NCBI GenBank assembly: GCA_013359225.1
Contig: JABWCG010000004.1
Location: 1,550-65,549, forward strand
Direction: 5' to 3'
Source: Candidatus Buchananbacteria bacterium
GTDB taxonomy: Bacteria > Patescibacteriota > Patescibacteriia > Buchananbacterales > UBA6539
Length of the DNA: 64,000 bases
This document shows positions 6,007 to 28,282 of the stretch, one piece after another. Numbering within the stretch: the stretch's first letter is position 1; each line of letters starts with the position of its first letter. The notes beneath the pieces are model-generated. The model was not told where the DNA came from and did no database searches. It worked only from the letters and a program-made list of their open reading frames with translations. Position numbers and translations under genes: made by a program.

Positions 6007-6366
6007 TTACTGAGCGCCGGTGGCCACAATCAACTGAGTAATGACGAAGCTGGCGATGGCGTACGAAACGAAGATGATAACCAAACCGATAATACCGGCG
6101 GTAATAATCTTTTTAGCCTGACCAACTTTTTCTTCGTTACCGGCTGAAGTCAACCAGACGAAACCTCCATACAGAATAATAACGATTGCAATAATACCTA
6201 AGAATCCGAGCAAGACGTTGATGATAGCCATGATACCTTCGCGCAAGTCTTTTGTTCCAAGACCGGTGTAGGTGCCGTATTCCAAGCCGACATTTAATGC
6301 CAATGCTGGAGTAACTGTCAAAGCAAACATCAAAACTGTCAAAGCAATTAATAAAACTTTTTTCAT
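6007..6366 (-). CDS. TrbC/VirB2-like pilin-family small secreted protein (paralog A, inverted copy)
   Basis: Start at MKKVLL preceded by AAAGGGGGTGAGAA RBS; signal peptide; LLGFLGI...YGGFVWLTSAGNEEKVGQAKKII...AYAIASFV two-TM C-terminal module; about 78% identical to the copy at 18352..18711 including the upstream RBS region. Confidence 0.6.
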   Translation of the reverse strand: MKKVLLIALTVLMFALTVTPALALNVGLEYGTYTGLGTKDLREGIMAIINVLLGFLGIIAIVIILYGGFVWLTSAGNEEKVGQAKKIITAGIIGLVIIFVSYAIASFVITQLIVATGAQ

Positions 6367-12490: not shown

Positions 12491-12599
12491 TCCATAAAAT
12501 CAAACCCATGCTTTTCTGTCCAAAGTGATGGATGGTTTTCATGGAGTATGTTCGGTAATGTTTACACATAGAAACTGGTCATATCGTCATTAAGATTAC

Positions 12600-13319
12600 T
12601 TATTTGACTTCAATATCCTTTACTGCCATTAATTCATCAGGGCTTATGTTTTTTCCATTTTTAAGCTTTGGAAGCAATTTCACTGTAATGGAGTATTTTC
12701 CCGGTGGAACTCTGTTACCATTATTGTCCGTGTAACCCCAGACTTCAGAAAATGAAAGTTTTTCATATTTTTTTAATTCGATTTCTATGATGGACATTAG
12801 AAAACCTTTGCCATGGGACCATCTATACACTTCATCTCCATTACTGTCTGTAATAAAAATATCAAACTTTTGACTTGAACGGAAATAAAGAGCCAGGTCT
12901 TTGTCAGAAATATTATGTAGGGAAAAGTCAAGCTTGACCCCGCTGTCTTCCTGTTTAATATCCATTTCTGTATCGAAGACCCCTGTTACAGACTTTTGAG
13001 ATTCCTCTTTTATCTGCTTTGTCCGTTCCATAAATTCAGGGTCTGTTTTTTTTATTGCCGGCAAAGAATTAGTTTCAACGGAAGCCGGTACAGGTTTTAT
13101 TTCAATCGTGCTGTTATCCTGTGGTGTGTCTCGTTGTGTTGGTGACATGCTGATTGGCATCATGCTATTTAATTGACTGACTGTATTTTTAGCGTTAAGC
13201 ATATTTTTGGTTTTGTAGTCAAATCCAAAAATATTCTTATTTAATGAACCCAATAATATTGCCGTACAGCATAAAACCAAAACAGCGATGACTTTCTTGG
13301 TTTTTTTTATAACCTTCAT
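12600..13319 (-). CDS. secreted/lipoprotein with C-terminal BsuPI-like (intracellular proteinase inhibitor) Ig-like domain
   Basis: Start trimmed to MKVIKKTKK (signal peptide, AAAGGA RBS). The C-terminal roughly 110 aa (SQKFDIFITDSNGDEVYRWSHGKGF...LSFSEVW...PPGKYSITVKL) follows the B. subtilis Ipi/BsuPI pattern as recalled from memory; AT-rich. Confidence 0.5.
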   Translation of the reverse strand: MKVIKKTKKVIAVLVLCCTAILLGSLNKNIFGFDYKTKNMLNAKNTVSQLNSMMPISMSPTQRDTPQDNSTIEIKPVPASVETNSLPAIKKTDPEFMERTKQIKEESQKSVTGVFDTEMDIKQEDSGVKLDFSLHNISDKDLALYFRSSQKFDIFITDSNGDEVYRWSHGKGFLMSIIEIELKKYEKLSFSEVWGYTDNNGNRVPPGKYSITVKLLPKLKNGKNISPDELMAVKDIEVK

Positions 13320-13472
13320 AATATTACCCATCCTTTCTTCAAATTCATTTTTCATTTTATTAGACGTAGAAGCTGTATCATTTGTTCTGTATAAGTTCAA
13401 TTTTCTACATCTCCTAAAACTTTTCGACCTGTGCAATAATAGCATAAACATATTTAAACTATCTAAACTAAC

Positions 13473-14457: not shown

Positions 14458-15195
14458 TTAACGACTACCAATAATTAACGCACCCGAAACCCCATTAACG
14501 GTAAAATCAATTTTTTTAAAATAAATTCGGCGTCCAGTTTCTCTAATCAACGCCCTAACTTTTGAGACAGCTGGCAACCTGACCGCCAAACTAACATACG
14601 GAGGTTTTTGCGACGAACCATACAGTTCGTTGCCGCGAATATCAGCAATGCGGCGCGGATAGGTATCCAGTGCCAACAAATTCTGGCCATACCGTGCCGG
14701 GCAATAGTTTCGAAAGGGTCGATAATACGGGGCTTCATATTTTTCCCACATTTTAATTAGCTGAGTCGGCGTATGCAAATTCCCTCGACAATTTAAAGCG
14801 CCGCAGCGACAAATGTGCTCCCGGCACTCCCCCGCCCGACATAACAAAACATCATACAAATAGTTAACGGTCAACTCTTCGCCCGGAAAAATTCGTCTCA
14901 GGGCAAAATAAATCACGTGACCCCGATACGAATGCATAGCGCAATTCGGGGCACACGCGTGATTAATTAAATGAATGCCAATTTGTTTTGGGTCGGGCAG
15001 CACAATCAATTTGTCGGTGCAGTGCATGGCGTAAAAACTTTTTTCGTTTTCTTGCCCTTCGCGCTGTTCAGAAATGACCGTGCCCAAATAATCACCGATC
15101 ACCGTACCGGGGTTAATTTCTTTTTTAGCAAAAACCCCACGGCCCTTACCTTTAATTTTTTTGACCTGCCAATAATCGGCAGAAAGTAAAAACAT
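14458..15195 (-). CDS. SET-domain protein-lysine methyltransferase with post-SET Cys cluster
   Basis: GRGVFA...GTVIGDY.G, NHACAPNC, ELTVNY and post-SET CRCGALNCRG motifs. The tool ORF extends 5' through the tRNA genes (AEWFKA/AEWSKAP are tRNA read-through), so trimmed to ATG at 15195. Confidence 0.6.
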   Translation of the reverse strand: MFLLSADYWQVKKIKGKGRGVFAKKEINPGTVIGDYLGTVISEQREGQENEKSFYAMHCTDKLIVLPDPKQIGIHLINHACAPNCAMHSYRGHVIYFALRRIFPGEELTVNYLYDVLLCRAGECREHICRCGALNCRGNLHTPTQLIKMWEKYEAPYYRPFRNYCPARYGQNLLALDTYPRRIADIRGNELYGSSQKPPYVSLAVRLPAVSKVRALIRETGRRIYFKKIDFTVNGVSGALIIGSR

Positions 15196-15207
15196 ATAGT
15201 TTAATGC

Positions 15208-15426
15208 TGGCGGAGAGGACAGGATTTGAACCTGCGAGGACTTGCGCCCATCCCGTCGTTCACGAACGACTGGACGAGATCCCACATTAATCGGAAGGGG
15301 CGAGATTCGAACTCGCGAGACCGTTGCCGGTCTACCGCTTTTCGAGAGCGGCGCTTTCGACCACTCAGCCACCCTTCCGATTAATGTGGGACAAGCCGTC
15401 GCCTTAAACCACTCGGCCACCTCTCC
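15208..15426 (-). tRNA. split tRNA-Ser-like gene: 5' half (acceptor GGAGAGG plus Ser-type D-arm, 15379..15426) and 3' half (variable hairpins plus T-arm plus CCTCTCC-G-CCA, 15208..15291) separated by the complete tRNA-Ser(CGA) and its perfect 14-bp inverted-repeat flanks
   Basis: Only two D-arms and two T-arms are present in 219 nt. The outer acceptor strands are perfectly complementary and CCA is encoded. No canonical anticodon arm could be folded for the outer molecule. Confidence 0.35.
15292..15378 (-). tRNA. tRNA-Ser (anticodon CGA), class II with long variable arm; no encoded CCA
   Basis: GGAAGGG acceptor/CCCTTCC, D-arm GCTGAGTGGTCGAAAGC, anticodon stem CCGCU/AGCGG with loop CUCGAAA, variable arm, T-arm GCGAGTTCGAATCTCGC, discriminator G; folded by hand. 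Confidence 0.7.
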
Positions 15427-15456
15427 ATTGCTTATTATTAACACATTTAATCAGTT

Positions 15457-15485
15457 TTTACAATTTAGCGTTTTTTTGTTATAAT
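15457..15485 (+). promoter_or_regulatory. sigma70-like promoter (TTTACA-17-TATAAT) for galU
   Basis: Hexamers with 17-nt spacer located 24 nt upstream of the galU ATG, in the divergent tRNA/galU intergenic region. Confidence 0.45.
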
Positions 15486-15508
15486 TTAAAACAGAATTGT
15501 TAAAAAAT

Positions 15509-16375
15509 ATGTCAAAAATTAGAAAAGTTGTTATCCCGGTTGCCGGCCTTGGCACTCGCTTCCTGCCCGCAACCAAAGCCCAGCCGAAAGAAATGTTACC
15601 GGTGGTTGATAAACCAATCATCCAATACATTGTCGAAGAGGCGGTCGCGGCCGGCATTACTGACGTAATTTTAGTAACCGGCTCAACCAAACGCGCGATT
15701 GAAGACCATTTTGATCGCAATGAAAACCTGGAAAACCATCTTAAAAAAAATGGCAAATCTAAATACTACCAGGCTGTCAAAGAGGTTGCTGAACTGGCAA
15801 ACTTTATTTTTATTCGACAAAAAGGGCCCTATGGCAACGGCACACCGGTACTTAATACTAAAGCAGTGATCGGCGATGAGCCATTTGCCGTCGTGTGGGG
15901 AGATGATATTTGGGATTGCCCAAGCCGGCCCCACATTAAACAGCTTATTGATGTTTATGAAAAATATGGCGACCCGGTAATCACCGCTTATAAGACCGAC
16001 GCCGAAGGCACATCAAAATACGGCATTATTGAGGGCACGGAAGTTGAACCAAACGTCTATCAGGTCAAATCAATCGCCGAAAAACCAGGTCCTCAAAAAG
16101 CTAAAAGCCGCATCGCTTCATTTGGCGGCTACATTTTTACGCCAGACATTTTTAATGAGCTGGAAAAAACCCCTCTGGGCAAAGGCGGCGAGCTGTGGCT
16201 GGTTGATGCAATTGCCCGACTACTCAAAAAACGCCCGATTTACGCGAAGATTATCGATGGCCAGCTCTACGACACCGGCTCAAAGCTTGGTTGGTTGAAA
16301 GCGAATGTTGAGTTTGGTCTCAAAGACAAAGAAATCAATAAAGAATTCAAAAACTTTTTGAAACATAAGCTATGA
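15509..16375 (+). CDS. galU: UTP--glucose-1-phosphate uridylyltransferase
   Basis: N-terminal KIRKVVIPVAGLGTRFLPATKAQPKEMLPVVDKP signature; start at ATG 15509 (the tool ORF starts at an upstream TTG). Confidence 0.8.
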   Translation: MSKIRKVVIPVAGLGTRFLPATKAQPKEMLPVVDKPIIQYIVEEAVAAGITDVILVTGSTKRAIEDHFDRNENLENHLKKNGKSKYYQAVKEVAELANFIFIRQKGPYGNGTPVLNTKAVIGDEPFAVVWGDDIWDCPSRPHIKQLIDVYEKYGDPVITAYKTDAEGTSKYGIIEGTEVEPNVYQVKSIAEKPGPQKAKSRIASFGGYIFTPDIFNELEKTPLGKGGELWLVDAIARLLKKRPIYAKIIDGQLYDTGSKLGWLKANVEFGLKDKEINKEFKNFLKHKL

Positions 16376-17754
16376 AAATAAAAACGAAACTTTATCTTTT
16401 AATTTTATTAGCCGTGGTGGCGGTTTCTTCCGGATTCAGCTGTAAATTTATTACGCCGTCGCAAAAGGAGTTGCTAGAACCGATTGAATTAACTTGGTGG
16501 GGTGTTACTGATGAGCCGGAAAATTTCTACGAGGTCATCGGCGATTACCAGGCCGCACACCCAAACATTAAAATTACTTACCGAAAATTACGCCTAGAAG
16601 AGTTCGAAAATGAGTTGCTGGAGGCCTTGGCCGAAGACCGCGGTCCGGATATTTTTTCCATTCATAACACCTGGGTAAATAAATATTTATCAAAAATTGA
16701 ACCCCTGCCGGCCAAAACCACCCTGGCATATCAAGTTACAAAAACCAGCCTCGGCATCAAACAAGAAACACTCATTGAAGTCCGAGACGTTCCGGCCATT
16801 ACCGCACCACAACTCAAAGAAACATTCTTAGACGTTGTCTATAATGATGTTGTGCGCGACAACAAAATTTACGGCCTGCCGCTGAGCGTTGATACGTTAG
16901 TCCTATTTTATAATCGTGACCTGCTCAATAATGCCGGCATTCCTCTGCCGCCCAAGACCTGGAATGAATTGCAAGAACAAGTTAAACGCTTGACCTTCCA
17001 AAATCAAAACGGCGACCTCATCCAATCCGGTGCTGCTCTGGGAACTGCCGAAAATATTGAGCGCAGTTCTGATATTGTTTCGCTGTTGATGATGCAAAAC
17101 GGTGCGGAAATGATTACCGGCCGAAACGTCACGTTTGGTGTTGTTCCATCCACATTCCCCGACCAAACCTATAATCCAGGTCCTGAGGCAGTCCGCTTTT
17201 ACACCGACTTTGCCAACAGTAGTAAAGAAGTATATTCATGGAATAAAACTTTTTCCAACTCCATTGACGCCTTTGCCGAAGGAAGAGTTGCCATGATCTT
17301 TGGTTATAACTATCACATCCCTATTTTAGAATCCAAACGCCAGGGCAAGCTAAACTATGGTATTAGTAATATGCCGCAAATTGAGGGCCGGACCGAAGTC
17401 AACTTTGCCAACTACTGGGTTAACACCGTTTCCAAAAAAAGCGCTCACATTAATGAAGCGTGGGATTTTATTCAATTCATAACAACTAAAAAAGCGGAAA
17501 CTGAAAAGTACCTAGCCAAAACCCTCCGGCCTACGGCACTACGAACACTGATTCAAGATCAAACCAACAACGATGCGTTAGCAGTATTTGCCAAGCAGCT
17601 TCTCACCGCTAAAAGCTGGTACCGCGGCGCTGACGCCGTGGCAGCGGAAAATGCTTTAAACGAAATGATTGAATCAATTTTAGCCGGTAACGATCTGCAA
17701 GAATCGGTAAATTTAGCCGCTCTAAAAATTCAACAAACACTTCAAACGCTATGA
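16372..17754 (+). CDS. extracellular solute-binding lipoprotein (ABC transporter substrate-binding protein, sugar family)
   Basis: Signal peptide with lipobox-like GFSC, 460 aa SBP-like; overlaps galU stop by 4 nt. Confidence 0.55.
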   Translation: MKIKTKLYLLILLAVVAVSSGFSCKFITPSQKELLEPIELTWWGVTDEPENFYEVIGDYQAAHPNIKITYRKLRLEEFENELLEALAEDRGPDIFSIHNTWVNKYLSKIEPLPAKTTLAYQVTKTSLGIKQETLIEVRDVPAITAPQLKETFLDVVYNDVVRDNKIYGLPLSVDTLVLFYNRDLLNNAGIPLPPKTWNELQEQVKRLTFQNQNGDLIQSGAALGTAENIERSSDIVSLLMMQNGAEMITGRNVTFGVVPSTFPDQTYNPGPEAVRFYTDFANSSKEVYSWNKTFSNSIDAFAEGRVAMIFGYNYHIPILESKRQGKLNYGISNMPQIEGRTEVNFANYWVNTVSKKSAHINEAWDFIQFITTKKAETEKYLAKTLRPTALRTLIQDQTNNDALAVFAKQLLTAKSWYRGADAVAAENALNEMIESILAGNDLQESVNLAALKIQQTLQTL

Positions 17755-18218
17755 AAAAAATTATTATAATATTTTTACTGGCTATCCTCGGATTGACCCT
17801 GGGCAGCCCTGCCTTAGCCCAAGAAAATAAAAAACCTTGGGTTGAAGAAATTTTAGGCGGTCCGCTGATTCCCTCCGGGTGCACCGAAAGCCAAGCTAAT
17901 GCCGGTTCTAGCCAAGTAACCAAATGCGGCCTTAATGAAATGCTGCAGGTTGGTATTAACTTTTCAAAAATCCTGCTCGCCCTAACCGGCAGCGCTGCTT
18001 TATTGATGTTTGTGTATGGCGGCGCGATGTTTATCATGGCGGCCGGCAAACAAGAAATGGTACAAAAAGGTAAAGCGGCGATGACTGCCGCCGTCATCGG
18101 CATTGTTATCATTTTAGGGGCCTATCTAATTGTCAACTTTACCATTCTTGCCCTGACTAAAGGCGAAGTCGGCGGCAATGCCACCATCTTTGGCCAACCT
18201 TTCAATCAAACTCCATAA
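17751..18218 (+). CDS. TrbC/VirB2-like pilin-family protein (paralog B, divergent; two Cys in mature N-region)
   Basis: Signal peptide, then INFSKILLALTGSAALLMFVYGGAMFIMAAGKQEMVQKGKAAMTAAVIGIVIILGAYLIV two-TM module; start overlaps SBP gene by 4 nt. Confidence 0.5.
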   Translation: MKKIIIIFLLAILGLTLGSPALAQENKKPWVEEILGGPLIPSGCTESQANAGSSQVTKCGLNEMLQVGINFSKILLALTGSAALLMFVYGGAMFIMAAGKQEMVQKGKAAMTAAVIGIVIILGAYLIVNFTILALTKGEVGGNATIFGQPFNQTP

Positions 18219-18351
18219 GATTGCCGCTAAAACATCTGGGGTTTTCATTGACACTAGCAACCAGTATTTATTATAATTTAGATAAGGTTATTTAAAATTA
18301 AGGCTGCAAGCGAAAGCAACACAGCTTCCAACCGTGAAAGGGGGTGAGAAA

Positions 18352-18711
18352 ATGAAAAAAATTGCGATTTTAACAACTTTAGGCGTAATCTTTGCCTTGA
18401 GTGCCATGCCAGTTTTGGCGATTGACACCGGCTTAAATTACGGCACTTACACTGGTTTGGGAACAAAGGACTTACGAGAAGGTATCATGAACGTCGTCAA
18501 CGTCTTGCTTGGATTCTTAGGCATTTTAGCAATCATTATTATCCTGTGGGGAGGTTTCCGCTGGCTTACTTCGGGCGGTAACGAAGAAAAAGTTGGTGAA
18601 GCTAAAAAGATTATCACCGCCGGTATTATCGGTTTGGTCATTATCTTTACGGCCTACGCCATCGCCAGCTTCGTCATCGTTCAGTTGATTCAGGCCACTG
18701 GCGCTCAATAA
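18352..18711 (+). CDS. TrbC/VirB2-like pilin-family protein (paralog C; near-identical to inverted copy A)
   Basis: AAAGGGGGTGAGAAAATG RBS-start; LLGFLGILAIIIILWGGFRWLTSGGNEEKVGEAKKIITAGIIGLVIIF...ATGAQ. Confidence 0.6.
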   Translation: MKKIAILTTLGVIFALSAMPVLAIDTGLNYGTYTGLGTKDLREGIMNVVNVLLGFLGILAIIIILWGGFRWLTSGGNEEKVGEAKKIITAGIIGLVIIFTAYAIASFVIVQLIQATGAQ

Positions 18712-18790
18712 TAACTAGTTTGAGTTTCAACGGTTATTAGATACATTCAAGCTGGGGAGACCTTCATAACTTTGGGGGTCTCCCCAATTG

Positions 18791-19207
18791 ATGAAAATTT
18801 ATAAAACCATGAAAATTTTAATTACCACAATCGTTATATTTTCAATCTTATTTTTGGTAGTCGCGCCAGATATACTACTAGCCGCCTGCCAAGGAACTGA
18901 CTGCGTCACCGCCGGACTGGAAGTAACTACCGAAAAAGCCGGGCTTGACACCGGTGCCAACGCCACCAACCTGCCCCGAATCATTGGTCGCGCCATCAAT
19001 GCTCTATTTGGCATTATCGGCGTTATTTTTCTAACCGTCGTCTTAATTGGCGGCTACGAATGGATGACATCCGGCGGCAGTGAAGAAAAAATCGCCAAGG
19101 GCAAAAAATTTATCATCAACGGCATCAACGGCATGATCGTTATTTTTTTGGCCTACGCCTTAGTCTACGTCATAATGTTTTCTCTAAGTCGCGCTACGGG
19201 CAGTTAA
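18791..19207 (+). CDS. TrbC/VirB2-like pilin-family protein (paralog D)
   Basis: Signal/TM, Cys pair in variable region, GGYEWMTSGGSEEKIAKGKKFIINGINGMIVIFLAYAL module. Confidence 0.55.
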   Translation: MKIYKTMKILITTIVIFSILFLVVAPDILLAACQGTDCVTAGLEVTTEKAGLDTGANATNLPRIIGRAINALFGIIGVIFLTVVLIGGYEWMTSGGSEEKIAKGKKFIINGINGMIVIFLAYALVYVIMFSLSRATGS

Positions 19208-19208
19208 C

Positions 19209-19622
19209 ATGAAATTTACTTTTTTACAAAAAAATTTTTTGGTTGTCAGCTTATTGATACTGACGACGTTTTTAATGACAACTCATTTTGTCGCCGCCAG
19301 CACCATGGACCAGGTTAACAGCGGTTTTGCCCAGACTGGTGAAGAAGCAGGCTTTCCAACTCAAGGTGGCAAACCAAAAGTGGAATTTAGTCAGGCTTTT
19401 ATCAACTACGTCAACAGCATGATTGGCCTCATGGGTTTACTGTTTATGGTTTTAGTCATCTACGGCGGTTGGCTTTGGATGTCTGCGCGCGGCAGCGAAG
19501 AACAGGTTACTAAAGCCAAAAAACTTATTATTAACGCGGTCATTGGCTTAGCGGCGGTCATTGGCGCGCGCCTGGTGGTAGAATTAGTTATTATTTATTT
19601 GAGCCGAACTTTTGTCAGTTAA
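19209..19622 (+). CDS. TrbC/VirB2-like pilin-family protein (paralog E)
   Basis: YGGWLWMSARGSEEQVTKAKKLIINAVIGLAAVIGARL module; 1-nt gap after D. Confidence 0.55.
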   Translation: MKFTFLQKNFLVVSLLILTTFLMTTHFVAASTMDQVNSGFAQTGEEAGFPTQGGKPKVEFSQAFINYVNSMIGLMGLLFMVLVIYGGWLWMSARGSEEQVTKAKKLIINAVIGLAAVIGARLVVELVIIYLSRTFVS

Positions 19623-19623
19623 C

Positions 19624-20025
19624 ATGAGTATGTTACAAAAAACTTTTTTTATTGCCCTGGTTCTGACGCTTGTTTTTCACGGTGTCGGGGTATTAGCTGC
19701 CGGCACACCTATTGGCGAACAAATGGGCGGCGGCCTGAACACCGCCATTGACGAAGTTTATGGCAGAGACGTTACGGTTGATCAAACCACATTTAACAGC
19801 GGTTTAATTACAATTATTAACACCCTGCTAACGTTTACCGGCATCATTTTTTTGCTACTGATCATTTATGCCGGGTACTTATGGATGACCGCACGCGGCA
19901 ACGAAGAACAGGTTGACCGGGCAAAAAAAATTACCCGCGAGGTAGTAATTGGTTTACTGCTAATACTGCTGGCCCGAATTATTACTGAATATATTTTGAT
20001 TCAAATTGGCAAAGCCACTAACTAA
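19624..20025 (+). CDS. TrbC/VirB2-like pilin-family protein (paralog F)
   Basis: Start moved to first ATG (MSMLQK) just after E stop; YAGYLWMTARGNEEQVDRAKKITREVVIGLLLILLARII module. Confidence 0.55.
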   Translation: MSMLQKTFFIALVLTLVFHGVGVLAAGTPIGEQMGGGLNTAIDEVYGRDVTVDQTTFNSGLITIINTLLTFTGIIFLLLIIYAGYLWMTARGNEEQVDRAKKITREVVIGLLLILLARIITEYILIQIGKATN

Positions 20026-20030
20026 AAAGT

Positions 20031-20426
20031 ATGAAAACTATTTACACACTCTTATTACTCAGCATCATTACTGCCGCCCTAGCAACACTAACGCCGGTAC
20101 TGGTCCTGGCACAGGGCGGTGATATTACTCAACAAATGCAAAACAGCCTAGCAAACGTCAGCTTGCCAAGCACTAACAAAGACGAGGGTCGGGTTGAAGT
20201 CATTGTCGGGAAAGTAATCGGCGCATTTTTGAGTATTTTTGGTATTATTTTCATGGTATTAATTATTTTTGGCGGCTATAAATGGATGATGGCTTCCGGC
20301 CGTGAAGAAGAAATTTCCAAGGCCAAAGCTACGATTCGCTCAGCGGTTATCGGCTTAATTATTGTTTTAGCGGCCTACGCTATCACCTTCTTTATTACTA
20401 ATGCTCTACAACAAGCCGTTGGCTAA
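20031..20426 (+). CDS. TrbC/VirB2-like pilin-family protein (paralog G)
   Basis: FGGYKWMMASGREEEISKAKATIRSAVIGLIIVLAAYAITFF module. Confidence 0.55.
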   Translation: MKTIYTLLLLSIITAALATLTPVLVLAQGGDITQQMQNSLANVSLPSTNKDEGRVEVIVGKVIGAFLSIFGIIFMVLIIFGGYKWMMASGREEEISKAKATIRSAVIGLIIVLAAYAITFFITNALQQAVG

Positions 20427-20431
20427 AATGT

Positions 20432-20848
20432 ATGAATGACACACTTAAAAAAGCGACAATTTTTTTCACCGTTATTGCGCTGCTTCTGGCCTTAAACATT
20501 GGATCGGTTTTAGCCCAAGGCACGCTTGACTTGACCGGTAAACTGAAAAACGTCGGCGGTAACGCTGGCTATTCCGCCGAGGTAACTGAAAACACGCTTC
20601 CTAACACCGTCGGAAATATTATCAAGGCCCTGCTATCCCTTTTGGGTATTATTTTTATGTCTTACATTGTGTACGCAGGATATCTCTGGATGACCGCGGC
20701 TGGCAACGATGAAAAAATCACCAAAGCTAAAGCGATTCTTCGCGGCAGCATTATCGGCTTAATTATTGTTTTAGCGGCCTACGCTATCACTCAATTTGTG
20801 CTCGTTTCAATAACTGAGGCAACCGGGTATAGCTCCGCAGGAAGCTAA
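20432..20848 (+). CDS. TrbC/VirB2-like pilin-family protein (paralog H)
   Basis: YAGYLWMTAAGNDEKITKAKAILRGSIIGLIIVLAAYAITQF module. Confidence 0.55.
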   Translation: MNDTLKKATIFFTVIALLLALNIGSVLAQGTLDLTGKLKNVGGNAGYSAEVTENTLPNTVGNIIKALLSLLGIIFMSYIVYAGYLWMTAAGNDEKITKAKAILRGSIIGLIIVLAAYAITQFVLVSITEATGYSSAGS

Positions 20849-20862
20849 TAAACTTCAACTTT

Positions 20863-21303
20863 ATGTTTAGTAAACTTTACCGCTCAATTATTCTGACCCT
20901 TTTGCTACTAGCCGTCGTTGGCATCACGTTCTCATTTGGTGCTATAGACACCAATGCCCAGGAAGGGTTAAGTCTTGATGAAATGACCAAACAAGCGGCC
21001 GGCGCTGCGGGCTACAGCGAAGAAACCAACGAAACCACGTTTGCCAAAATTGTTGGTACGGTAGTTCGGGTATTTCTTTCGTTGCTCGGTGTCATTTTTA
21101 TCTCTTACACTGTATATGGCGGGTTCTTATGGATGACCGCGGCTGGCAACGATGAAAAAATCACCAAAGCAAAGCACATTATCCGCGACGGCATTATCGG
21201 CTTAATCGTCATTCTGTCAGCAGCCGGCATCTACTACTTTATAGCCGAGTTTTTAATTGACACCTCTGGCACTTCCGGCGGCACTATTCCTGGCGGAGGT
21301 TAA
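20863..21303 (+). CDS. TrbC/VirB2-like pilin-family protein (paralog I, Gly-rich C-terminal tail)
   Basis: YGGFLWMTAAGNDEKITKAKHIIRDGIIGLIVILSAAGIYYF module; ends GTSGGTIPGGG. Confidence 0.55.
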   Translation: MFSKLYRSIILTLLLLAVVGITFSFGAIDTNAQEGLSLDEMTKQAAGAAGYSEETNETTFAKIVGTVVRVFLSLLGVIFISYTVYGGFLWMTAAGNDEKITKAKHIIRDGIIGLIVILSAAGIYYFIAEFLIDTSGTSGGTIPGGG

Positions 21304-21314
21304 AAGACAAATCT

Positions 21315-21734
21315 ATGAATAAAAAAATAAAATTTTTACTGACCTTTCTGCTGCTACTAGGCATTTTAACCCTGAACGTGACGCCGGTTTTGGCGCAAGG
21401 CCTCCAGGACCCGGCTAAACAAAAACTTGATGCTCAAAACGAAGCTTTTTTGGCTGAAACCGGACTTGGAACTCAGACGAGTTTGTCACTGATGGTAAGC
21501 GCCATCATCCGAGTATTTCTGTCTTTTCTGGGAGTAATCTTTGTTGTTTTAATTATCTACGCCGGTTTTATGTGGATGACGTCAGCCGGCAATGAAGATA
21601 AAATCAGCAAGGCCAAAAAAATTATGGCTTCCGCCATTATTGGTTTAGCAATCGTACTGGCGGCATACGCCATCACCTACTTTGTACTTGATCAGCTACT
21701 TGAAGCAACTAAGGGCGGCCAAGGACTCGACTAA
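21315..21734 (+). CDS. TrbC/VirB2-like pilin-family protein (paralog J)
   Basis: YAGFMWMTSAGNEDKISKAKKIMASAIIGLAIVLAAYAITYF module. Confidence 0.55.
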   Translation: MNKKIKFLLTFLLLLGILTLNVTPVLAQGLQDPAKQKLDAQNEAFLAETGLGTQTSLSLMVSAIIRVFLSFLGVIFVVLIIYAGFMWMTSAGNEDKISKAKKIMASAIIGLAIVLAAYAITYFVLDQLLEATKGGQGLD

Positions 21735-21755
21735 TCAATCTTGATAAAATAAATA

Positions 21756-21805
21756 GAGGGTGCACTATTTTTTCCGTTCTGGAAAAGTGCACCCTCTTTG
21801 AAAAA
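21756..21805. terminator. bidirectional terminator hairpin (agagggtgcact ... agtgcaccctct)
   Basis: 12-bp perfect inverted repeat with internal sub-hairpin, flanked by A/T runs, between convergent pilin J and the GC-rich lipoprotein gene. Confidence 0.5.
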
Positions 21806-21825
21806 ACAAAGGCTCGCTAGGCTCG

Positions 21826-22404
21826 CTAGGGAGCGACGATTGACCAGTCGCAGGTAAAACCCTCAACTTGGTTATCCGCTTCCACGGTGTCGATATCGCG
21901 CCAACCTCGCAGATAAGCGCTGCTTGATCCGGCGCGATAGAGTTGCACGTAGTACCGATCAGCCGGCAAAAACGTCCACTCTTTAGCACCAGGACCAATG
22001 GTTCGAACCAGCGCGAACTGGCCATAACTGACCTCAAACCGTACTGGCCGGCTTGAAGCGTTATAAAGGACCCCCCGATAGAACTTAAAGGGTCCTCGCG
22101 GCAATGTCGCTGACGGATCAGCATTCAAATCTGGCAAAGCCTTCCAGTAGCTTTCGCCCTGAAGCTCCCAGAATTGCCGCACCGCTTCGTCGCGGTTGGC
22201 GCGCGCCTTCATCCAAGCCTCGACGAAATTCTGGTTGGAGTCGGTATAATGCTCTACTCCTCCCACGTGCAGCTCAGCAGCCTGATAGCCGACCCAATAC
22301 TTGCTGTCTGCGTTCTGCTTTGCCACCAAGGCCGCTCGACCAGTTGGCGTCACGGTACTGCAACCAACCGCCAGCAGCAACACTATTGCACAAATCTGTT
22401 TCAT
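21826..22404 (-). CDS. lipoprotein of unknown function, GC-rich (about 58% GC), probably horizontally acquired
   Basis: Lipobox LLLAVGC; strong AGGAG RBS at 10-nt spacing; composition contrasts with flanking pilin genes; 2x9-bp tandem repeat ggctcgcta at the 3' end. Confidence 0.5.
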   Translation of the reverse strand: MKQICAIVLLLAVGCSTVTPTGRAALVAKQNADSKYWVGYQAAELHVGGVEHYTDSNQNFVEAWMKARANRDEAVRQFWELQGESYWKALPDLNADPSATLPRGPFKFYRGVLYNASSRPVRFEVSYGQFALVRTIGPGAKEWTFLPADRYYVQLYRAGSSSAYLRGWRDIDTVEADNQVEGFTCDWSIVAP

Positions 22405-22570
22405 CGTAAAACCGCTCCTCTTGGTTATCGGCCGCTAGGCCTAATTTTTCAATTCAAAGGGCACTAAAGAACTTTGAATATTAACATAAATTAGCAAATT
22501 TGTCAATAAATATTCCCCTAAAAACAGATAAAATGGTATAATTACCTTACTTAACTTTTAAAATACCTGT

Positions 22571-22990
22571 ATGACCAAAACAGCTTACCTATTTTTACAT
22601 GCCCTAATGGTTTTTACGCTCTTGCTCAGCCTAGTACCGGTTAATGCTCTGGCAGTTAGTGGCGACATTACTGATTTAATGAAAGATCAGCTCGAACCAA
22701 TTGAAGAAGTCTATGATCCGCGCGACGACGTTACCCCATCAACTTTTTCTAAAAACGTTGCTCAAATGATTAATGTCGTGCTTGGATTTCTAGGAATTGT
22801 TTTCCTCATTTTAATCCTCTACGCTGGCTGGATGTGGATGACGTCAGCCGGCAATGAAGATAAAATCAGCAAAGCCAAAAAAACAATGGTTGCCGCCATT
22901 ATCGGAGTGGCGATCATTTTAGCAGCGTACGCCATCTCCTACTTTGTTATTAATCAATTATTGATTGCTACCAAGGGCGAAGGATTATAA
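22571..22990 (+). CDS. TrbC/VirB2-like pilin-family protein (paralog K; closest to J)
   Basis: YAGWMWMTSAGNEDKISKAKKTMVAAIIGVAIILAAYAISYF module. Confidence 0.55.
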   Translation: MTKTAYLFLHALMVFTLLLSLVPVNALAVSGDITDLMKDQLEPIEEVYDPRDDVTPSTFSKNVAQMINVVLGFLGIVFLILILYAGWMWMTSAGNEDKISKAKKTMVAAIIGVAIILAAYAISYFVINQLLIATKGEGL

Positions 22991-23002
22991 ATGGTCTCTA
23001 AA

Positions 23003-23040
23003 AACAACCCGGCGCCATACGGCTTTCGGGTTGTTTTTTA
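23003..23040 (+). terminator. Rho-independent terminator ending the pilin array
   Basis: aacaacccg ... cgggttgtt stem followed by TTTTTAT. Confidence 0.55.
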
Positions 23041-23065
23041 TTAACTAAAAAACTACAATAAGTAC

Positions 23066-24997
23066 ATGAAGCCGTCTGTAATCCAATCATGGATCACCAC
23101 CCACAACCGGCAAATTCTTTTTGCGGCAATCGCGCTATATAGCGGATTATTTTCGCTAATCGCTATCTGGAAATACCACAACTTCTACTATACTGCCATT
23201 GATCTGGCAATTTTTAATCAAACTTTTTTCAACTCGCTTTTGGGAAACTGGTTTGGGCTAACCATTCATCCGCCAAGCTACCTAGGCGATCATTTTTCAC
23301 CATTACTCATACTATTACTACCGTTTTATGCCCTGACCAAAAATCCGGAAAGTTTGCTGATACTGCTGGCAACAATCAACGGCCTAAGTGCTTGGCCACT
23401 ATATCTGATTGCCAAAAAAGCGCTGGGTGCTAAACTGGCGCTGCCAGTTGCCCTGGCCTGGTTGCTAAACCCGGTAGTACAAAACACCACGCTGTTTGAA
23501 TTTAATTTTTTGTCGTTTGCCGTGTTCTTTTTGTTCTGGGCGTTTTATAGCTACCAAAGAAAAAAATTCCTGCCGGCAGTCCTCTTTTTACTATTGGCGA
23601 TGCTTGCCCGCGAAGACGTTAGTCTAGTAGTCTTAATGTTTGGCATTGTTGCTTTAGGTCAAAAAAAATCATGGCGTTGGGTTGTTACGCCGTTGATTAT
23701 GGGTTTGGTCTATTTTAGCGCCGCAGTTTTTGTAATAAAAGTCTTCGCCCCGGCCGATGAATATAAATTTTTTATCTACTACCCCTGGATTAATCACCTA
23801 ACAACCCAGCCATGGCTACCGATTATTTATCTGCTACGACCCAATAACATTATCTACCTTATCGGTCTTGGGTTAACGGTAGTTTTTTTACCATTAATAA
23901 GCCCGCTCTTTTTATTACTTGGTGCCATTATAGCGCTACAACTCCTGCTTGGCGGGTCGGGTGGCGGACAACTCCTGCTGGAAACCCACTACTCCAGCCT
24001 GTTATTGCCAGCACTATTTATCGCCTCAATTTATGGCTTAAAAAAAATTTTTGACCCAAACCAGAAACCAACCATTATTAAGCTTGTCAACCAACACCGT
24101 GCACTACTTACTACACTCTTAGTCTTTGGCGTTTTCTATGCTAGCGTAACACTGGGCCCGGCCTCCGGCATTTGGCAGCACCGACACCGAACCGACAACA
24201 GTAAAGCGCGCGCCACCATGCTTCGGCAAATTCCCGACGACCAAGCCGTTGCTAGTAGCTACCAATTTTTACCGACGCTATCCTCGCGAAAAAATATTTA
24301 CTCTTTTAATTATGCCTTTTTAGGCAAGCAGCAATTTTTACGTAGCGACTACAAACTGCCCGAAGACACTACCTGGATCGCTTTAGATTTTTCCGATCTA
24401 ATCACCTACCAAATCCAATACGGCTTCAATCCTTATTACCAAAATCAATACCAGGCCGCGCTTAAAACGTGGCCAAAACTGCTTGATGATTTTGGGCTGG
24501 TGGCCATTACTGATAGCTACGCCCTATACCAACGCAATGCAACTGCAGCCTTTGAACTAGTAAAAATTTTAGACACGCCACCAATTAATGCCAATGCTGT
24601 TTCCCTAACCAACGGGGTGATATTTTTAGGTTACCAAAAAGAAGCCGGACAATATCAACTACTTTGGCAACTCATGCTGCCGCAAGAAATACCTTATCGC
24701 ATACGCCTAGAATTGATTAAAGACGGTAAAACCGTATACCAAAAACTGTATCCCTTTGGATATGATTTATTACTAAACGCACCAGCGGGGCCAGCAAATG
24801 TCCAAACTAATTATTGGTTTAACCCCGACCATCGCGTAGCTCCCGGAACATATGACCTAAAGCTGACGCTGGTCAAGATAATTGATGGCGGTATTGAGGT
24901 TGATGAAATTCGGTCCACTAAAAATGTGATTGATCAGGAAGAAATTATAGGCGAAATATTAAAAACAAAATTTATTGTACCACTTGATACACTGTAA
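23066..24997 (+). CDS. large polytopic membrane protein with C-terminal extracytoplasmic domain (GT-C-fold glycosyltransferase-like)
   Basis: 643 aa, N-terminal roughly 330 aa multi-TM, C-terminal soluble domain; context of GT2/GT-C cluster. Confidence 0.35.
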   Translation: MKPSVIQSWITTHNRQILFAAIALYSGLFSLIAIWKYHNFYYTAIDLAIFNQTFFNSLLGNWFGLTIHPPSYLGDHFSPLLILLLPFYALTKNPESLLILLATINGLSAWPLYLIAKKALGAKLALPVALAWLLNPVVQNTTLFEFNFLSFAVFFLFWAFYSYQRKKFLPAVLFLLLAMLAREDVSLVVLMFGIVALGQKKSWRWVVTPLIMGLVYFSAAVFVIKVFAPADEYKFFIYYPWINHLTTQPWLPIIYLLRPNNIIYLIGLGLTVVFLPLISPLFLLLGAIIALQLLLGGSGGGQLLLETHYSSLLLPALFIASIYGLKKIFDPNQKPTIIKLVNQHRALLTTLLVFGVFYASVTLGPASGIWQHRHRTDNSKARATMLRQIPDDQAVASSYQFLPTLSSRKNIYSFNYAFLGKQQFLRSDYKLPEDTTWIALDFSDLITYQIQYGFNPYYQNQYQAALKTWPKLLDDFGLVAITDSYALYQRNATAAFELVKILDTPPINANAVSLTNGVIFLGYQKEAGQYQLLWQLMLPQEIPYRIRLELIKDGKTVYQKLYPFGYDLLLNAPAGPANVQTNYWFNPDHRVAPGTYDLKLTLVKIIDGGIEVDEIRSTKNVIDQEEIIGEILKTKFIVPLDTL

Positions 24998-26639
24998 CGC
25001 CCTGAGACGAAAACACTTCGTGCAAATACTTATGAAGGGCCGGGTTAAAGCTACCCAGCTCTTTTTCGTAATCACTGTATATGAGGTATGAGATATTATT
25101 AGCCAACAAAAACTCATGCTTTTTATCGGCATAGTCGTTGTCTAAGAAAAACCACTGAATATAGGCTGCCTTGGAGCCAAAAAATAGCGTTTCGTGAGCA
25201 TGGGCCGCATATACCGCATGCCCGGAAAATCCTGGCGCAAATTTAAGCGGAATATCAGCGCCAAACACCACTCCGGCCCGAGACTGCTGGGTCGCCAGCC
25301 AAGCATAGGCGTCAAATAAACCATTGGGCAAAAACAGTTTGGTGGTAATAGCAGGACTGTTGCTGAAAATAAAATAAAAATCGCGGCCAACACTATACAA
25401 ATTTGACGGCATCAGCCAAATCACAAACAACAAAATCAGTAGCACGCTATTATTAATCCAGAAATCATACGTTGCCGGCTTGAGCCGAGTTCGCAGATAT
25501 GCCCCCAATTCGCTTAGACCAATAACCGTAAAAATCACTAAAATAATATGTAGACCCTGCGTATAGCGGCTATGGAAAGGAAACGGCGAATAAATCAAAA
25601 CAATATCAACAATAAACCACGAAAGCAACAACCAGTGACGGCGATCAAACTTTTTTTGGTGCCACAAAAACCATAAGCCCAAAATAAACCCCAGCCACAA
25701 CAGACCGTAACCTAATACCACAAAAATAAAAGGTGAGATATTAGTGACATTTTGAATCGCCCGCTGACCAATCACCGGACTAGCGCCAATCAGCCAAAAA
25801 TGATAAATCACCGACGGTAATGATATTAAAAATACCACTATTAAATAGCCGGCTTCACGCCATAAAAATCGATTAGCCCGCAGCATTAAACCAAACAAAT
25901 AAAGCCCTAAAACACCAAAAATAACCGGAAAATAATATGGGTGAAAATTAAAATAACACAAAGCCAAAACACCACTTACAGCCGCATATACCATTTTTCT
26001 CCTACTTTCAAACGCTAGCGCCATCAGTAAAAAAATAAGAATCATCAGCGTAATTGAGGCGATAAAATGCGACGTTTGATAAAGCGTGTTAAAAGTATTT
26101 GCCTCAGTTAACCATAAATCAATTGGCCAGCGGTAGGGGTCGGGTCCTTCAATGCCCAGCGCGTCAATTGGTGCGGCAACATAAAAACCAAGGCCGCTAG
26201 AAAAAAGTAAAAAGATAAGTGCGGTTAGTCGCACCGCGCGGTCGGAAAAAAAGTAAGCGATAAAAATATAAGCTACTGTTAAAAAAACAGGAATCATAAT
26301 CAGCCGCGAAAGTTGAAACGCTAAAATAACCGGCAGATTAAATATGCCCGCCAACTGCCCAATCCAAGCCCACCATATATTCAAGGTTCCGAATGCTTGC
26401 GGTTCAGGAGTTAATAAGTTTTTTACGAATATTTCGCCGCTACGGGCCTGATTGATATATGAATAATAAACAGGAATATCTCCGGGACTTAACGCGTGCA
26501 AACCATTATAGGTAAAACCATTAGGTGCAAAAAAATACCCCGCCAAATATGGCAGGCCGGTAATAATAATCATCACTAGCGCCAACAACCAAACCAAGCG
26601 CCATTCTTGTTGACTGATAGTGGCTAAAATTTTTTTCAT
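24972..26639 (-). CDS. GT-C-like polytopic membrane protein (tandem paralog 1 of 2)
   Basis: 555 aa, more than 12 TM, shares N-terminal EWRLV...YYSYINQA(R/K)SG(E/K)I motif with the next gene. Confidence 0.4.
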   Translation of the reverse strand: MKKILATISQQEWRLVWLLALVMIIITGLPYLAGYFFAPNGFTYNGLHALSPGDIPVYYSYINQARSGEIFVKNLLTPEPQAFGTLNIWWAWIGQLAGIFNLPVILAFQLSRLIMIPVFLTVAYIFIAYFFSDRAVRLTALIFLLFSSGLGFYVAAPIDALGIEGPDPYRWPIDLWLTEANTFNTLYQTSHFIASITLMILIFLLMALAFESRRKMVYAAVSGVLALCYFNFHPYYFPVIFGVLGLYLFGLMLRANRFLWREAGYLIVVFLISLPSVIYHFWLIGASPVIGQRAIQNVTNISPFIFVVLGYGLLWLGFILGLWFLWHQKKFDRRHWLLLSWFIVDIVLIYSPFPFHSRYTQGLHIILVIFTVIGLSELGAYLRTRLKPATYDFWINNSVLLILLFVIWLMPSNLYSVGRDFYFIFSNSPAITTKLFLPNGLFDAYAWLATQQSRAGVVFGADIPLKFAPGFSGHAVYAAHAHETLFFGSKAAYIQWFFLDNDYADKKHEFLLANNISYLIYSDYEKELGSFNPALHKYLHEVFSSQGVTVYQVVQ

Positions 26640-28282
26640 AAAACTTGATAAATTATTACTTCGCTGTTGCGATACACCTCCTGTAAATACGTTTTAGAAG
26701 ATGGATCATAATCCCCCAAAGCCCGTTCGTCCGGACCGTAATAAATCAAGGTAATGCCGCGCTGGGTTAAAAATGATTTTTCCGTTTCGTCGGGCCGGTT
26801 AGTTTCAAAAAACCAGTTTACTTCTCCCTGCTTAAAATTAAAAAACGGAGTTTCGACTCCGTGTCCGACATAGACACGCTGATTAGCGAAAGCTGGTAAA
26901 ACATTAATGATGTTTGCCGCTGTGTTTAAAACAACGCCCTCTGGCACCTGCTCCAGCCAGCGGGCCGCTACCACCTTTGACTGTTCCAAATATGACAAGT
27001 TCAGATGATTGGTGTACATATAGTAATTAACGGCAATGTGAAAAACGTTTGAAGTAATCAGTAAAAACCCTAAAGTGAATGAGAGCCCGTACCGCTTTTG
27101 GTATAACATCCTGGCCACTGGATGACGGCTGGTCGTCATCCAAACAGACAGCTGTATTAATGCCACAGTCGCCAAAAGTGCCAACGGAACGTGTAACCCT
27201 TGGGTCATGCGGCGCTGCCATGGCACCGGAGCAAAAATCAACAGTCCCTGAAACACCAACCAGGTTATTAAAAAAATCTCAGTGGTTGATTGCTTGCCTC
27301 TCTTGATATACCACCCCACCGCTCCCGCGGCTAAAATAAGCAACAAACCATAGCTAACCAAAACAATCCACCACGGTGGCGTTAGGGTCAAATTCTGCAA
27401 TGTTTTTTGACTAATAACCGGATCAATCTTGATTAATAACAAATAATAAAACACTGACGGGAAAGCCAGCACGCTAAAAATAAAATAGTACCAAAATAAC
27501 GGCCAATGCCAAGCCCGATCGCGCACTACCAGCACTAGAAAAAAAATCAAGATAAAACCATAGATGGTTAAAACGTGAAAAGGATGAAAAGAAAAAAGCG
27601 CTAACCCGATTAGTCCGGCGACAACAGGATACCAATAATTAGCCTGAAGCGTAAACAAAAGCGTTAACCAGAAAATAAGTAAAATCAGAATTGATGAAGC
27701 AATAAAATGCGGCGAATAGTGCAAAGTCAGATAGGTAAAGGCTTCCGGCACCCATAAATCAAGCGGCCAATTGAATTGCCCGTTGGAAAAATTATTCGGA
27801 TATCGAATAAGGCGGTCAATTAAAAGCAACCCCAGCCCAGAACTGAAGCTCAACATAATAATGCTCAGCTTCCTTTTAACTAAATCCGAAAAAATAGTTG
27901 CAATCAATAGATACGCCGTCGCCATAAAAACCGGAATCAACATAATACGAGCGGCCTGAAACGCCACAAATGCCGATAGATCAAAAATTCGAGCCAGCCA
28001 GCCGACCGCTAACCAACAGATATTCAAGGTTGGCAGCTGATGGTCGGCTGAAAACAAATTATCAAACAAAATTTTACCGCTTTTAGCCTGATTGATGTAT
28101 GAATAATATACAAACCAGTCATTAGGGGCCGAAAAATGCACCCCCATAAAAACCTTGTCGGAAGGCGTAATTAAAAAACCATAGACCAACGGTGCGGTAG
28201 TAATCACAATCAAAAATAAACTTAAAAGAATGACCAGGCGCCATTCCTTTTTACTAATTGATCGAAAAATTTGCTTAATCAT
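26636..28282 (-). CDS. GT-C-like polytopic membrane protein (tandem paralog 2 of 2)
   Basis: Start set at internal ATG (MIKQIFRSISKKEWRL) matching the paralog N-terminus; 4-nt overlap with downstream gene. Confidence 0.4.
   Translation of the reverse strand: MIKQIFRSISKKEWRLVILLSLFLIVITTAPLVYGFLITPSDKVFMGVHFSAPNDWFVYYSYINQAKSGKILFDNLFSADHQLPTLNICWLAVGWLARIFDLSAFVAFQAARIMLIPVFMATAYLLIATIFSDLVKRKLSIIMLSFSSGLGLLLIDRLIRYPNNFSNGQFNWPLDLWVPEAFTYLTLHYSPHFIASSILILLIFWLTLLFTLQANYWYPVVAGLIGLALFSFHPFHVLTIYGFILIFFLVLVVRDRAWHWPLFWYYFIFSVLAFPSVFYYLLLIKIDPVISQKTLQNLTLTPPWWIVLVSYGLLLILAAGAVGWYIKRGKQSTTEIFLITWLVFQGLLIFAPVPWQRRMTQGLHVPLALLATVALIQLSVWMTTSRHPVARMLYQKRYGLSFTLGFLLITSNVFHIAVNYYMYTNHLNLSYLEQSKVVAARWLEQVPEGVVLNTAANIINVLPAFANQRVYVGHGVETPFFNFKQGEVNWFFETNRPDETEKSFLTQRGITLIYYGPDERALGDYDPSSKTYLQEVYRNSEVIIYQVL

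Follow-up and report, generated by a model that had tools for sequence, protein, structure and literature searches.

The 64-kb window analysed here (64,000 nucleotides of contig JABWCG010000004.1 from a Candidatus Buchananbacteria bacterium; "the window" means this whole stretch) carries a tandem array of pilin genes, ten small open reading frames (ORFs) on the plus strand at 17751-22990, together with an eleventh copy on the minus strand at 6007-6366. Each encodes a protein of 119-155 amino acids (aa), and all eleven proteins score above the gathering threshold of Pfam family PF18895, T4SS_pilin (29.4-48.5 versus 26.6 bits). The eleven genes thus belong to PF18895, which we take to be the Patescibacteria branch of the TrbC/VirB2-type pilins. 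Comparison with related loci indicates that the ten array genes are ancient paralogues kept in fixed order across Buchananbacteria-like genomes, and that they form a stable set. The proteins are probably, though far from certainly, VirB2-type pilin subunits of a Patescibacteria type IV secretion system (T4SS), assembled by a VirB4 machine encoded elsewhere.

The array genes are called slots 1 to 10 by their order and the copy at 6007-6366 is called the extra copy; related genome loci compared with the window carry L numbers. The ORF list bears out the coordinates given in a first-pass annotation of this DNA, which had reported ten ORFs of 119-155 aa and an eleventh copy at 6007..6366. The eleven genes are as follows.

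17751..18218, plus strand: pilin slot 1, 155 aa; PF18895 29.4 bits; orthologues in L001, L002, L004 and L010-L015
18352..18711, plus strand: pilin slot 2, 119 aa; PF18895 48.5 bits and TrbC 29.4 bits, each above cutoff
TTG 18788 (139 aa) or ATG 18791 (138 aa)..19207, plus strand: pilin slot 3; PF18895 41.4 bits, and orthology
19209..19622, plus strand: pilin slot 4, 137 aa; PF18895 30.4 bits, and orthology
19624..20025, plus strand: pilin slot 5, 133 aa; PF18895 34.6 bits
20031..20426, plus strand: pilin slot 6, 131 aa; PF18895 38.6 bits; NF045849 41.4 bits, above cutoff
20432..20848, plus strand: pilin slot 7, 138 aa; PF18895 41.1 bits
20863..21303, plus strand: pilin slot 8, 146 aa; PF18895 37.0 bits
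21315..21734, plus strand: pilin slot 9, 139 aa; PF18895 32.0 bits; 100% identical to NCBI protein HUU49_04865 of Candidatus Buchananbacteria
22571..22990, plus strand: pilin slot 10, 139 aa; PF18895 30.2 bits; NF045849 43.2 bits, above cutoff; apparently monocistronic
6007..6366, minus strand: extra slot-2-type pilin, 119 aa; PF18895 34.9 bits; strong Shine-Dalgarno sequence, as in slot 2

No copy is more divergent than slot 1, which has two Cys residues in its mature N-region and a long C-tail. The likely start of slot 5 is ATG 19624, where the TAACATG junction matches that at slots 3/4 (the ORF list has TTG 19612, 137 aa); this junction forms repeat family D3 in the DNA repeat comparison of the slots. 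Given this start, the gaps within slots 3-9 are 1, 1, 5, 5, 14 and 11 nt. The spacers of 1-14 nt that had been described for the whole array are thus found in slots 3-9 and not elsewhere, with 133 nt between slots 1 and 2, 76 nt between slots 2 and 3, and 836 nt between slots 9 and 10, the last gap holding a gene for a 192-aa lipoprotein on the opposite strand (21826-22404). Upstream, ATGA overlaps join galU to a solute-binding protein (SBP) gene and the SBP gene to slot 1, in keeping with the earlier proposal that the first copy is translationally coupled to galU and a sugar-binding lipoprotein.

Alignment of the copies with MAFFT (alignment A1) gave five invariant columns, with a poorly conserved first half and a conserved second half (consensus LGIIF...YGG..WMTAAGNEEKI.KAKK...IIGL.I.LAAYAI); the module L.GxxGIIF...YGG..WMT.AGNEEK..KAKK...IIGL.IVLAAYAI is common to all copies. 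Hydropathy analysis of each copy found three hydrophobic segments, a signal-like N-terminal one with K/R at its start and two transmembrane (TM) helices, TM1 and TM2, linked by a short polar loop with a basic end (KAKK). The signal peptide, divergent N-region and conserved two-TM module described in the first-pass annotation are therefore seen in every copy by hydropathy and alignment. Predicted signal-peptidase I sites are of the (V/A)LA|Q type, and the predicted mature N-segments are acidic, 17-40 residues long with a net charge of -1 to -7. An AlphaFold2 model of slot 2 is a helical hairpin (pLDDT 81) with helices at 41-72 and 78-116 at pLDDT >90. A cleavable signal peptide followed by two TM helices and a basic loop is the arrangement of VirB2/TrbC propilins.

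The assignment to a TrbC/VirB2-like pilin family, for which the first-pass annotation had suggested a search with hidden Markov models, was upheld by PF18895 for all eleven copies and by TrbC itself for slot 2 only. Against PF04956 (TrbC/VirB2; gathering score 27.9 bits), slot 2 passes at 29.4 bits, five copies are sub-threshold at 17.8-22.4 bits, and five have no match. All 94 homologues in a wider alignment (A3) match PF18895, and 19 of the 94 match TrbC at E < 1e-3. The NCBIfam model NF045849 (cutoff 40 bits), run on the ten array copies, scored slots 6 and 10 above cutoff and the other eight at 18-38 bits.

In three syntenic contigs (L001, L002/L003 and L004), NTP_transferase is followed by SBP_bac_1 and then by 8-10 pilins, an ORF on the minus strand that matches no Pfam family, 1-2 further pilins and DUF2079. 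By all-against-all BLASTP, each window slot pairs with the slot of the same number in L001 and L002 and with the equivalent slot in L004, where slot 2 is tandemly duplicated. Orthologues in L001, L002 and L004 are 42-86% identical (BLASTP), most slots falling at 42-65%, and the flanking proteins in the same loci are 74-80% (GalU), 63-69% (SBP) and 43-49% (DUF2079) identical. Paralogues within the genome reach 27-52% in their best local matches and 22-50%, with a mean of 34%, in global alignment. The order 1 to 10 was found again in six species-level genomes (L010-L015), some of which are without slots 7/8 or slot 6. The extra copy is 82% identical to its positional orthologue L001_x, compared with 74% (aa) and 77% (DNA) to slot 2 of its own genome; being nearer to the orthologue, it points to an old duplication whose copies were not homogenised. 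Repeats between slots at the DNA level are 77% identical over 193 nt at best, and others 61-63%. Judged by these comparisons, there is no concerted evolution or gene conversion among the copies.

Region-wise amino acid identity was used in place of a formal dN/dS, which was set aside because most orthologues are only 42-65% identical and their synonymous sites are saturated.

N-segment: orthologues 19-74% identical (slot 2: 74%), paralogues 13%
C-module: orthologues 53-82% identical, paralogues 39%

The contrast between variable N-regions and a conserved C-module drawn in the first-pass annotation holds for paralogues, whose N-regions are 13% identical, but the N-regions are inherited slot by slot and are not hypervariable. 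Together with slot orthology, the region-wise identities speak for distinct roles that have been retained, and against a cassette that generates variation by recombination.

Searching genome contigs with the pilin profile yielded 79 species-level loci, from metagenome-assembled genomes (MAGs) of Buchanan-, Magasanik-, Uhr-, Kerfeld-, Kuenen- and Falkowbacteria type; at least two same-strand pilins are present in 75 of them. Outside the Buchananbacteria clade, only slot-1-like genes (the first after the SBP gene) and slot-2-like genes are still recognisable, and the remaining pilins, which resemble slots 7 and 9, stem from lineage-specific expansions. Copy number there ranges from 2 to 13, which together with these expansions suggests that the tail of the array evolves by long-term birth and death. 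Among the species-level representative genomes, L030 has 13 pilins and L075 (complete chromosome OZ246405.1) has 12, above the published range of 2-11. Two loci of Veblenbacteria type and GW2011_GWD2_43_10 type have two pilin modules fused in one gene encoding 227-229 aa (L006 9202-9891; L007 9188-9871), and their last pilin (L006 10461-10913; L007 10389-10922) has a Cys-rich C-terminal extension. Many records carry titles that look like placeholders or mislabels: L015, L017, L018, L024 and many typical Patescibacteria loci are titled "uncultured Gammaproteobacteria bacterium", and other related MAG records Binatia, Nanoarchaeia or Acutalibacteraceae.

The array had been proposed to be a single polycistron. 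The following signals, all predicted from the DNA, divide it instead.

15457..15485, plus strand: promoter-like site 5' of galU, TTTACA-17-TATAAT with TG, 11/12 consensus positions
18248..18277, plus strand: sigma-70 consensus promoter for slot 2, TTGACA-18-TATAAT, 12/12 positions
18753..18786, plus strand: GC-rich stem-loop 3' of the slot 2 stop, -29.5 kcal/mol, z = -6.2, no T-run
21755..21797, unstranded: stem-loop between the convergent slot 9 and lipoprotein genes, -26 kcal/mol, z = -6.6
22534..22542, plus strand: extended -10 element TGGTATAAT 5' of slot 10, read from the sequence
23000..23044, plus strand: intrinsic-terminator-like hairpin with a T-run 3' of slot 10, -21.1 kcal/mol, z = -5.2

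Given these promoters and hairpins, the array is probably not one polycistron, and we predict at least four transcription units: galU-SBP-slot 1, slot 2, slots 3-9, and slot 10. Both hexamers of the putative slot 2 promoter are kept in L001, L002 has one mismatch in the first hexamer, and L004 keeps the second hexamer only (A2). Hairpins of unrelated sequence also follow slot 2 in L001, L002 and L004; the one at 18753..18786 is likely an attenuator or mRNA stabiliser, and the stem-loop at 21755..21797 is likely a bidirectional terminator. The Shine-Dalgarno sequence of slot 2, AAAGGGGGTGA, is strong and conserved and is shared by the extra copy, while the other slots have no obvious one. Slot 2 is also the shortest copy, the best conserved (75-90% between genomes) and the sole duplicated type. 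We infer that slot 2 is a candidate for an abundant major subunit.

The array is part of a cassette whose other members are listed here.

15497..16375, plus strand: galU, UTP-glucose-1-phosphate uridylyltransferase, the first gene of the cassette; TIGR01099 327.5 bits against a cutoff of 326.8, and Pfam NTP_transferase
16372..17754, plus strand: carbohydrate-type solute-binding lipoprotein (SBP_bac_1; Pfam and NCBIfam), of the MalE/GanS carbohydrate type
23066..24997, plus strand: DUF2079 polytopic membrane protein (Pfam, 183 bits), closing the cassette in many related loci

Among the 54 related loci with enough upstream sequence, an SBP homologue lies immediately 5' of the first pilin in 41, and galU precedes the SBP gene in 36 of those 41. 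The window holds no ABC permease or ATPase partner for the SBP. DUF2079 adjoins the array in L001, L002, L004, L008 and L009, with homologues in 14 of the 79 loci. Beyond it in the window, the minus strand encodes glycosyltransferases of GT2 and PMT_2 type, and the downstream set as a whole comprises DUF2079, 555-aa membrane proteins, GT2, PMT_2/MptA_B-type GT-C enzymes and PGI; the GT2 genes resemble polyprenyl-phosphate hexose transferases. The 2025 survey of Patescibacteria pilin arrays (PMC12102498) examined virB4 neighbourhoods, not distant arrays, and we found no description of a galU-SBP-pilin cassette.

Two adjacent paralogous 555-aa polytopic proteins (24972-28303, minus strand) and one of 520 aa (31752-33314, minus strand) match nothing in Pfam or NCBIfam. 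Located among the GT2 and PMT_2 genes, they are conserved beside arrays in many related loci and are possibly uncharacterised GT-C-type enzymes. The extra copy (region 5271-8745) is flanked by a gene for an MscS-like channel and one for a 738-aa secreted protein with weak EccB-like/Ig-like matches; MscS-like and EccB-like homologues co-occur in several related loci (L001 1-3112, L014, L016, L018).

The genes dnaN and dnaA (minus strand) and rnpA and yidC (plus strand), with a cumulative GC-skew minimum near 40-42 kb, mark an origin region at 40698-45197 (40.7-45.2 kb). The array is therefore chromosomal and about 20 kb from dnaA and the replication origin. It lies 19-25 kb to the left of the origin on the plus strand, and its transcription would meet the leftward-moving replication fork head-on. 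Three of the related loci are of a type adjacent to dnaA/dnaN.

The embedded lipoprotein gene keeps its position, while its protein evolves fast.

21826..22404, minus strand: lipoprotein gene inside the array, LAVGC lipobox, 192 aa, no Pfam or NCBIfam match
L001 10476-10922, L002 8858-9550 and L004 10897-11499, also L010, L012, L013, L014 and L062: counterpart lipoprotein genes

Homologues in the same position were found in L001, L004, L010, L012, L014 and L062. The window gene has a GC content of 0.553, against 0.431 for the window, and a GC content at third codon positions (GC3) of 0.59. The gene is a compositional outlier in every genome (GC 0.45-0.58 versus 0.32-0.51 in the surrounding locus), with GC3 at 0.57-0.66 in five of the six genes checked (L062, 0.45) and neighbouring genes at 0.18-0.29 (L001), 0.30-0.42 (L002) and 0.43-0.52 (window). 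RNA structure was considered as the cause and does not explain this composition, as folding z-scores are only about -2.

The reading that we favour, VirB2-type subunits of a T4SS whose VirB4 machine is encoded elsewhere, takes its account of assembly and function from the family and from the Saccharibacteria literature, and its account of family, topology, orthology and expression signals from what the sequence contains or predicts. The pilins would be exported by Sec and cut at the (V/A)LA|Q-type sites, and the resulting hairpins would be stored in the cytoplasmic membrane, their two termini facing outward and their basic loop inward. Slot 2 would serve as the major subunit, and the other slots as lower-abundance accessory subunits with exposed slot-specific N-segments. 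A VirB4-type, monoderm-like T4SS elsewhere in the genome may then extract the hairpins and polymerise them into a pilus-like fibre or conduit, which the epibiotic cell would use at its interface with the host cell. A heteropolymeric filament is plausible, and the array would be a fixed toolkit of distinct parts rather than of interchangeable variants.

Several observations weigh against this. The relation to canonical conjugative pilins is weak, with the TrbC cutoff passed by one of eleven copies. Profiles A1 and A3 found no sequence match in the PDB, fold searches return generic helical hairpins only, and tblastn of slot 2 against 72,556 plasmids gave nothing at E <= 0.01. By hhalign, with single sequences as targets, A3 aligned with Agrobacterium tumefaciens VirB2 (verified as 100% identical to plasmid records) at a non-significant E = 0.048 and a probability of 1%, though in a sensible register (TM1, W-M, loop, TM2), and did not match F TraA. 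The window lacks T4SS genes, ATPases included: a Pfam search of its 47 large ORFs found no VirB4, VirB11 or VirD4, just as the first-pass annotation had said. Nine looked-up loci and the 79 species-level loci are likewise free of T4SS genes up to 10 kb from the array; for the latter, all ORFs were screened for VirB4 by a Walker-A and size filter followed by Pfam, a filter that truncated or atypical VirB4 could escape, and the only large Walker-A ORFs were UvrA, SMC, an ABC exporter and FtsK. What is conserved beside the arrays is galU, SBP, DUF2079 and GT2/GT-C glycosyltransferases. Finally, according to the papers cited here, a T4SS pilus has been observed in no Patescibacterium.

The gene neighbourhood invites another explanation, a T4SS-independent envelope or uptake module of ABY1 in which the hairpins act with the SBP, GalU and polyprenyl-phosphate-sugar glycosyltransferases and need no VirB4. 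It might produce a surface fibre or sheath that is glycosylated, or else an assembly in the membrane that docks the orphan SBP for capture of host sugars. The finding that 41 of 54 loci have the SBP gene directly 5' of the first pilin and that 36 of these have galU too, the ATGA overlap between SBP and slot 1, the flanking DUF2079, GT2 and PMT_2 or MptA_B genes with their resemblance to polyprenyl-phosphate hexose transferases, an SBP without an ABC partner in the window, and the lack of VirB4 within 10 kb in any locus all fit such a module. We nevertheless consider it unlikely. The family points to T4SS pilins, whose Saccharibacteria homologues are essential and lie inside a T4SS cluster; VirB4 is present in seven of the nine Buchananbacteria assemblies examined from the published Table S1, and so in most of them; and where genomes are small and syntenic, conservation of gene order near oriC may be no guide to function. 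The bolder form of this proposal is rather less likely still: that the ABY1 paralogue set is the core of a distinct envelope module (galU, orphan SBP, pilin slots, lipoprotein, DUF2079/GT-C/GT2), independent of VirB4 and not a T4SS accessory, which would build a heteromeric and perhaps glycosylated structure, either a surface fibre or a membrane conduit, to take host sugars in concert with the SBP.

Two further explanations concern the copies themselves. Small membrane proteins that form no filament (holin-like proteins, scaffolds or channel-forming hairpins), for which the PF18895 name would overstate what is known, would suit a generic TM hairpin fold with ATP synthase subunit c and coiled-coil hairpins as its best PDB matches, the weak sub-threshold matches to DctQ, FixQ and similar small subunits of transporters, and the fact that no polymer has been observed. 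The holin-like alternative was named in the first-pass annotation, but the copies match no holin family in PHROGs, and their locus is chromosomal, among envelope genes and without phage context. The signal peptide, two-TM and basic-loop layout is that of VirB2/TrbC propilins, and several copies match the TrbC and NF045849 profiles; we regard a non-filament role as very unlikely. Least probable of all is a reservoir of interchangeable pilin variants, recombined or alternately expressed, as proposed for Bartonella trwL and Anaplasma virB2. The low identity of paralogue N-regions (13%), the tail expansions of slot-7/9 type with copy numbers of 2-13 beyond the clade, and the suggestion of adaptation to different host strains (PMC12102498) would agree with it. 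The antigenic or receptor variation suggested in the first-pass annotation is at odds, however, with the one-to-one positional orthologues: at 42-90% identity they are closer to one another than are any two paralogues of the genome (22-52%), even between genomes in which GalU has diverged to 74-80% identity. Homogenisation is lacking, as the best between-slot repeat of 77% over 193 nt indicates; the extra copy is nearer its orthologue than its in-genome paralogue; no invertible or recombination signals were found; and length, Cys content and expression signals vary from slot to slot.

Other features of the window lie apart from the array. The Rfam scan of the window returned a tRNA-Ser only. 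A SET-domain gene at 14458-15444 (minus strand; Pfam SET, 68 bits) is beside this tRNA-Ser(CGA) at 15291-15379 (minus strand), and its mechanically called ORF crosses the tRNA gene, so that the true SET start is downstream of the tRNA. A subtilase gene (611 aa) adjoins a gene with a BsuPI proteinase-inhibitor domain at 10559-13451. At 57914-59953, a 679-aa protein combines a CMP-sugar cytidylyltransferase (CTP_transf_3) with an alpha-2,8-polysialyltransferase-like domain, which hints at a sialic-acid-like or Kdo-like surface polymer. Segments with GC of about 0.50 (50001-52000, 54001-56000, 62001-64000; window mean 0.43) coincide in part with an ORF of 252 aa that matches no family, with a gene of the DHDPS family and with one for a 2-hydroxyacid dehydrogenase.

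Patescibacteria account for a large part of the diversity among uncultured bacteria, and they seem to live on other cells. Their T4SS with its pilin series has proved essential in the only species in which this was tested, and there would be no precedent for a T4SS pilus in a monoderm. The locus described here sharpens questions of composition, glycosylation and a role in uptake for cultivated or enriched members.

Compared with TrbC/VirB2 (PF04956; A. tumefaciens VirB2, RP4 TrbC), the proteins are alike in having a signal peptide, two hydrophobic helices and a short basic loop, the W-M motif that ends TM1 aligns with VirB2 ISWMF, and slot 2 passes the TrbC cutoff. They differ in that 10 of 11 copies fall below that cutoff, with no significant pairwise or profile match to VirB2/TraA, and in their longer polar loop (GNEEKxxKAKK), their monoderm host and the absence of adjacent virB genes. 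The linkage to mating-pair-formation genes (VirB3, VirB4, VirB6) expected of TrbC/VirB2 was seen neither in the window nor in the 9 and 79 loci. Like the Bartonella trwL and Anaplasma virB2 paralogues, these are divergent tandem pilin paralogues in an organism dependent on host contact. The Bartonella and Anaplasma arrays are within or beside T4SS operons and are read as variant pili for host range or antigenic variation, whereas the copies here lie apart from T4SS genes and form stable orthologous slots in a set order. The Mbov_0395 family (NF045849) of Mycoplasma integrative and conjugative elements (ICEs) is likewise a small two-TM pilin-like protein from a wall-less or monoderm lineage, but NF045849 is an equivalog model of a single-copy ICE gene, and there are eleven copies here without ICE context. 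A functional analogy can be drawn with the major and minor pilin sets of type IV pili, in that one conserved and putatively highly expressed subunit gene with its own promoter and hairpin accompanies a divergent accessory set that would be co-transcribed; fold and machinery are unrelated and there is no prepilin peptidase motif, so the comparison is not one of homology.

The closest likeness is to the VirB2 arrays of Patescibacteria. Quinonero-Coronel et al. (2025), who searched with PF04956 and PF18895, found VirB2-like pilins in 1,948 Patescibacteria assemblies also having VirB4, and 441 "VirB2 arrays" of 2-11 pilin genes, in tandem or split by one non-pilin gene, in 383 assemblies (PMC12102498). 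Identity within those arrays has a mean of 25% and a maximum of 54%, T4SS genes are often near dnaA, and the arrays were proposed to give versatility toward host strains (PMC12102498). The present array shares the PF18895 family, the tandem genes, a single gap with one non-pilin gene, and a Patescibacteria chromosome: nine genes are in tandem, the tenth follows one lipoprotein gene, and divergence within the array is high, with a mean identity of 34% and a maximum of 50%. The survey stresses Microgenomatia and Saccharimonadia, and the array here is from ABY1, the GTDB class to which Buchananbacteria belong in the published dataset. In Southlakia epibionticum (ML1), a pilin series inside the T4SS cluster, a six-pilin cluster, is essential (Wang et al., 2023, PMC10633639); unlike that cluster, the array here is outside a T4SS cluster, in a conserved galU-SBP-pilins-DUF2079 cassette. 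A 2025 review considers Patescibacteria systems unique among monoderms in their potential for conjugative-type pili, and speculates on a conduit for uptake from the host (PMC12857230). Since VirB2 arrays were published in 2025, the locus belongs to a kind already described, although the papers on VirB2 arrays cited here describe neither orthology at the level of slots nor a candidate major subunit nor a lipoprotein gene embedded in the array, and related loci here reach 12-13 copies compared with the published 2-11. What the present comparison adds to the VirB2 arrays is a set of stable, ordered slots, one likely major subunit, and a linkage to galU and SBP away from VirB4 in ABY1.

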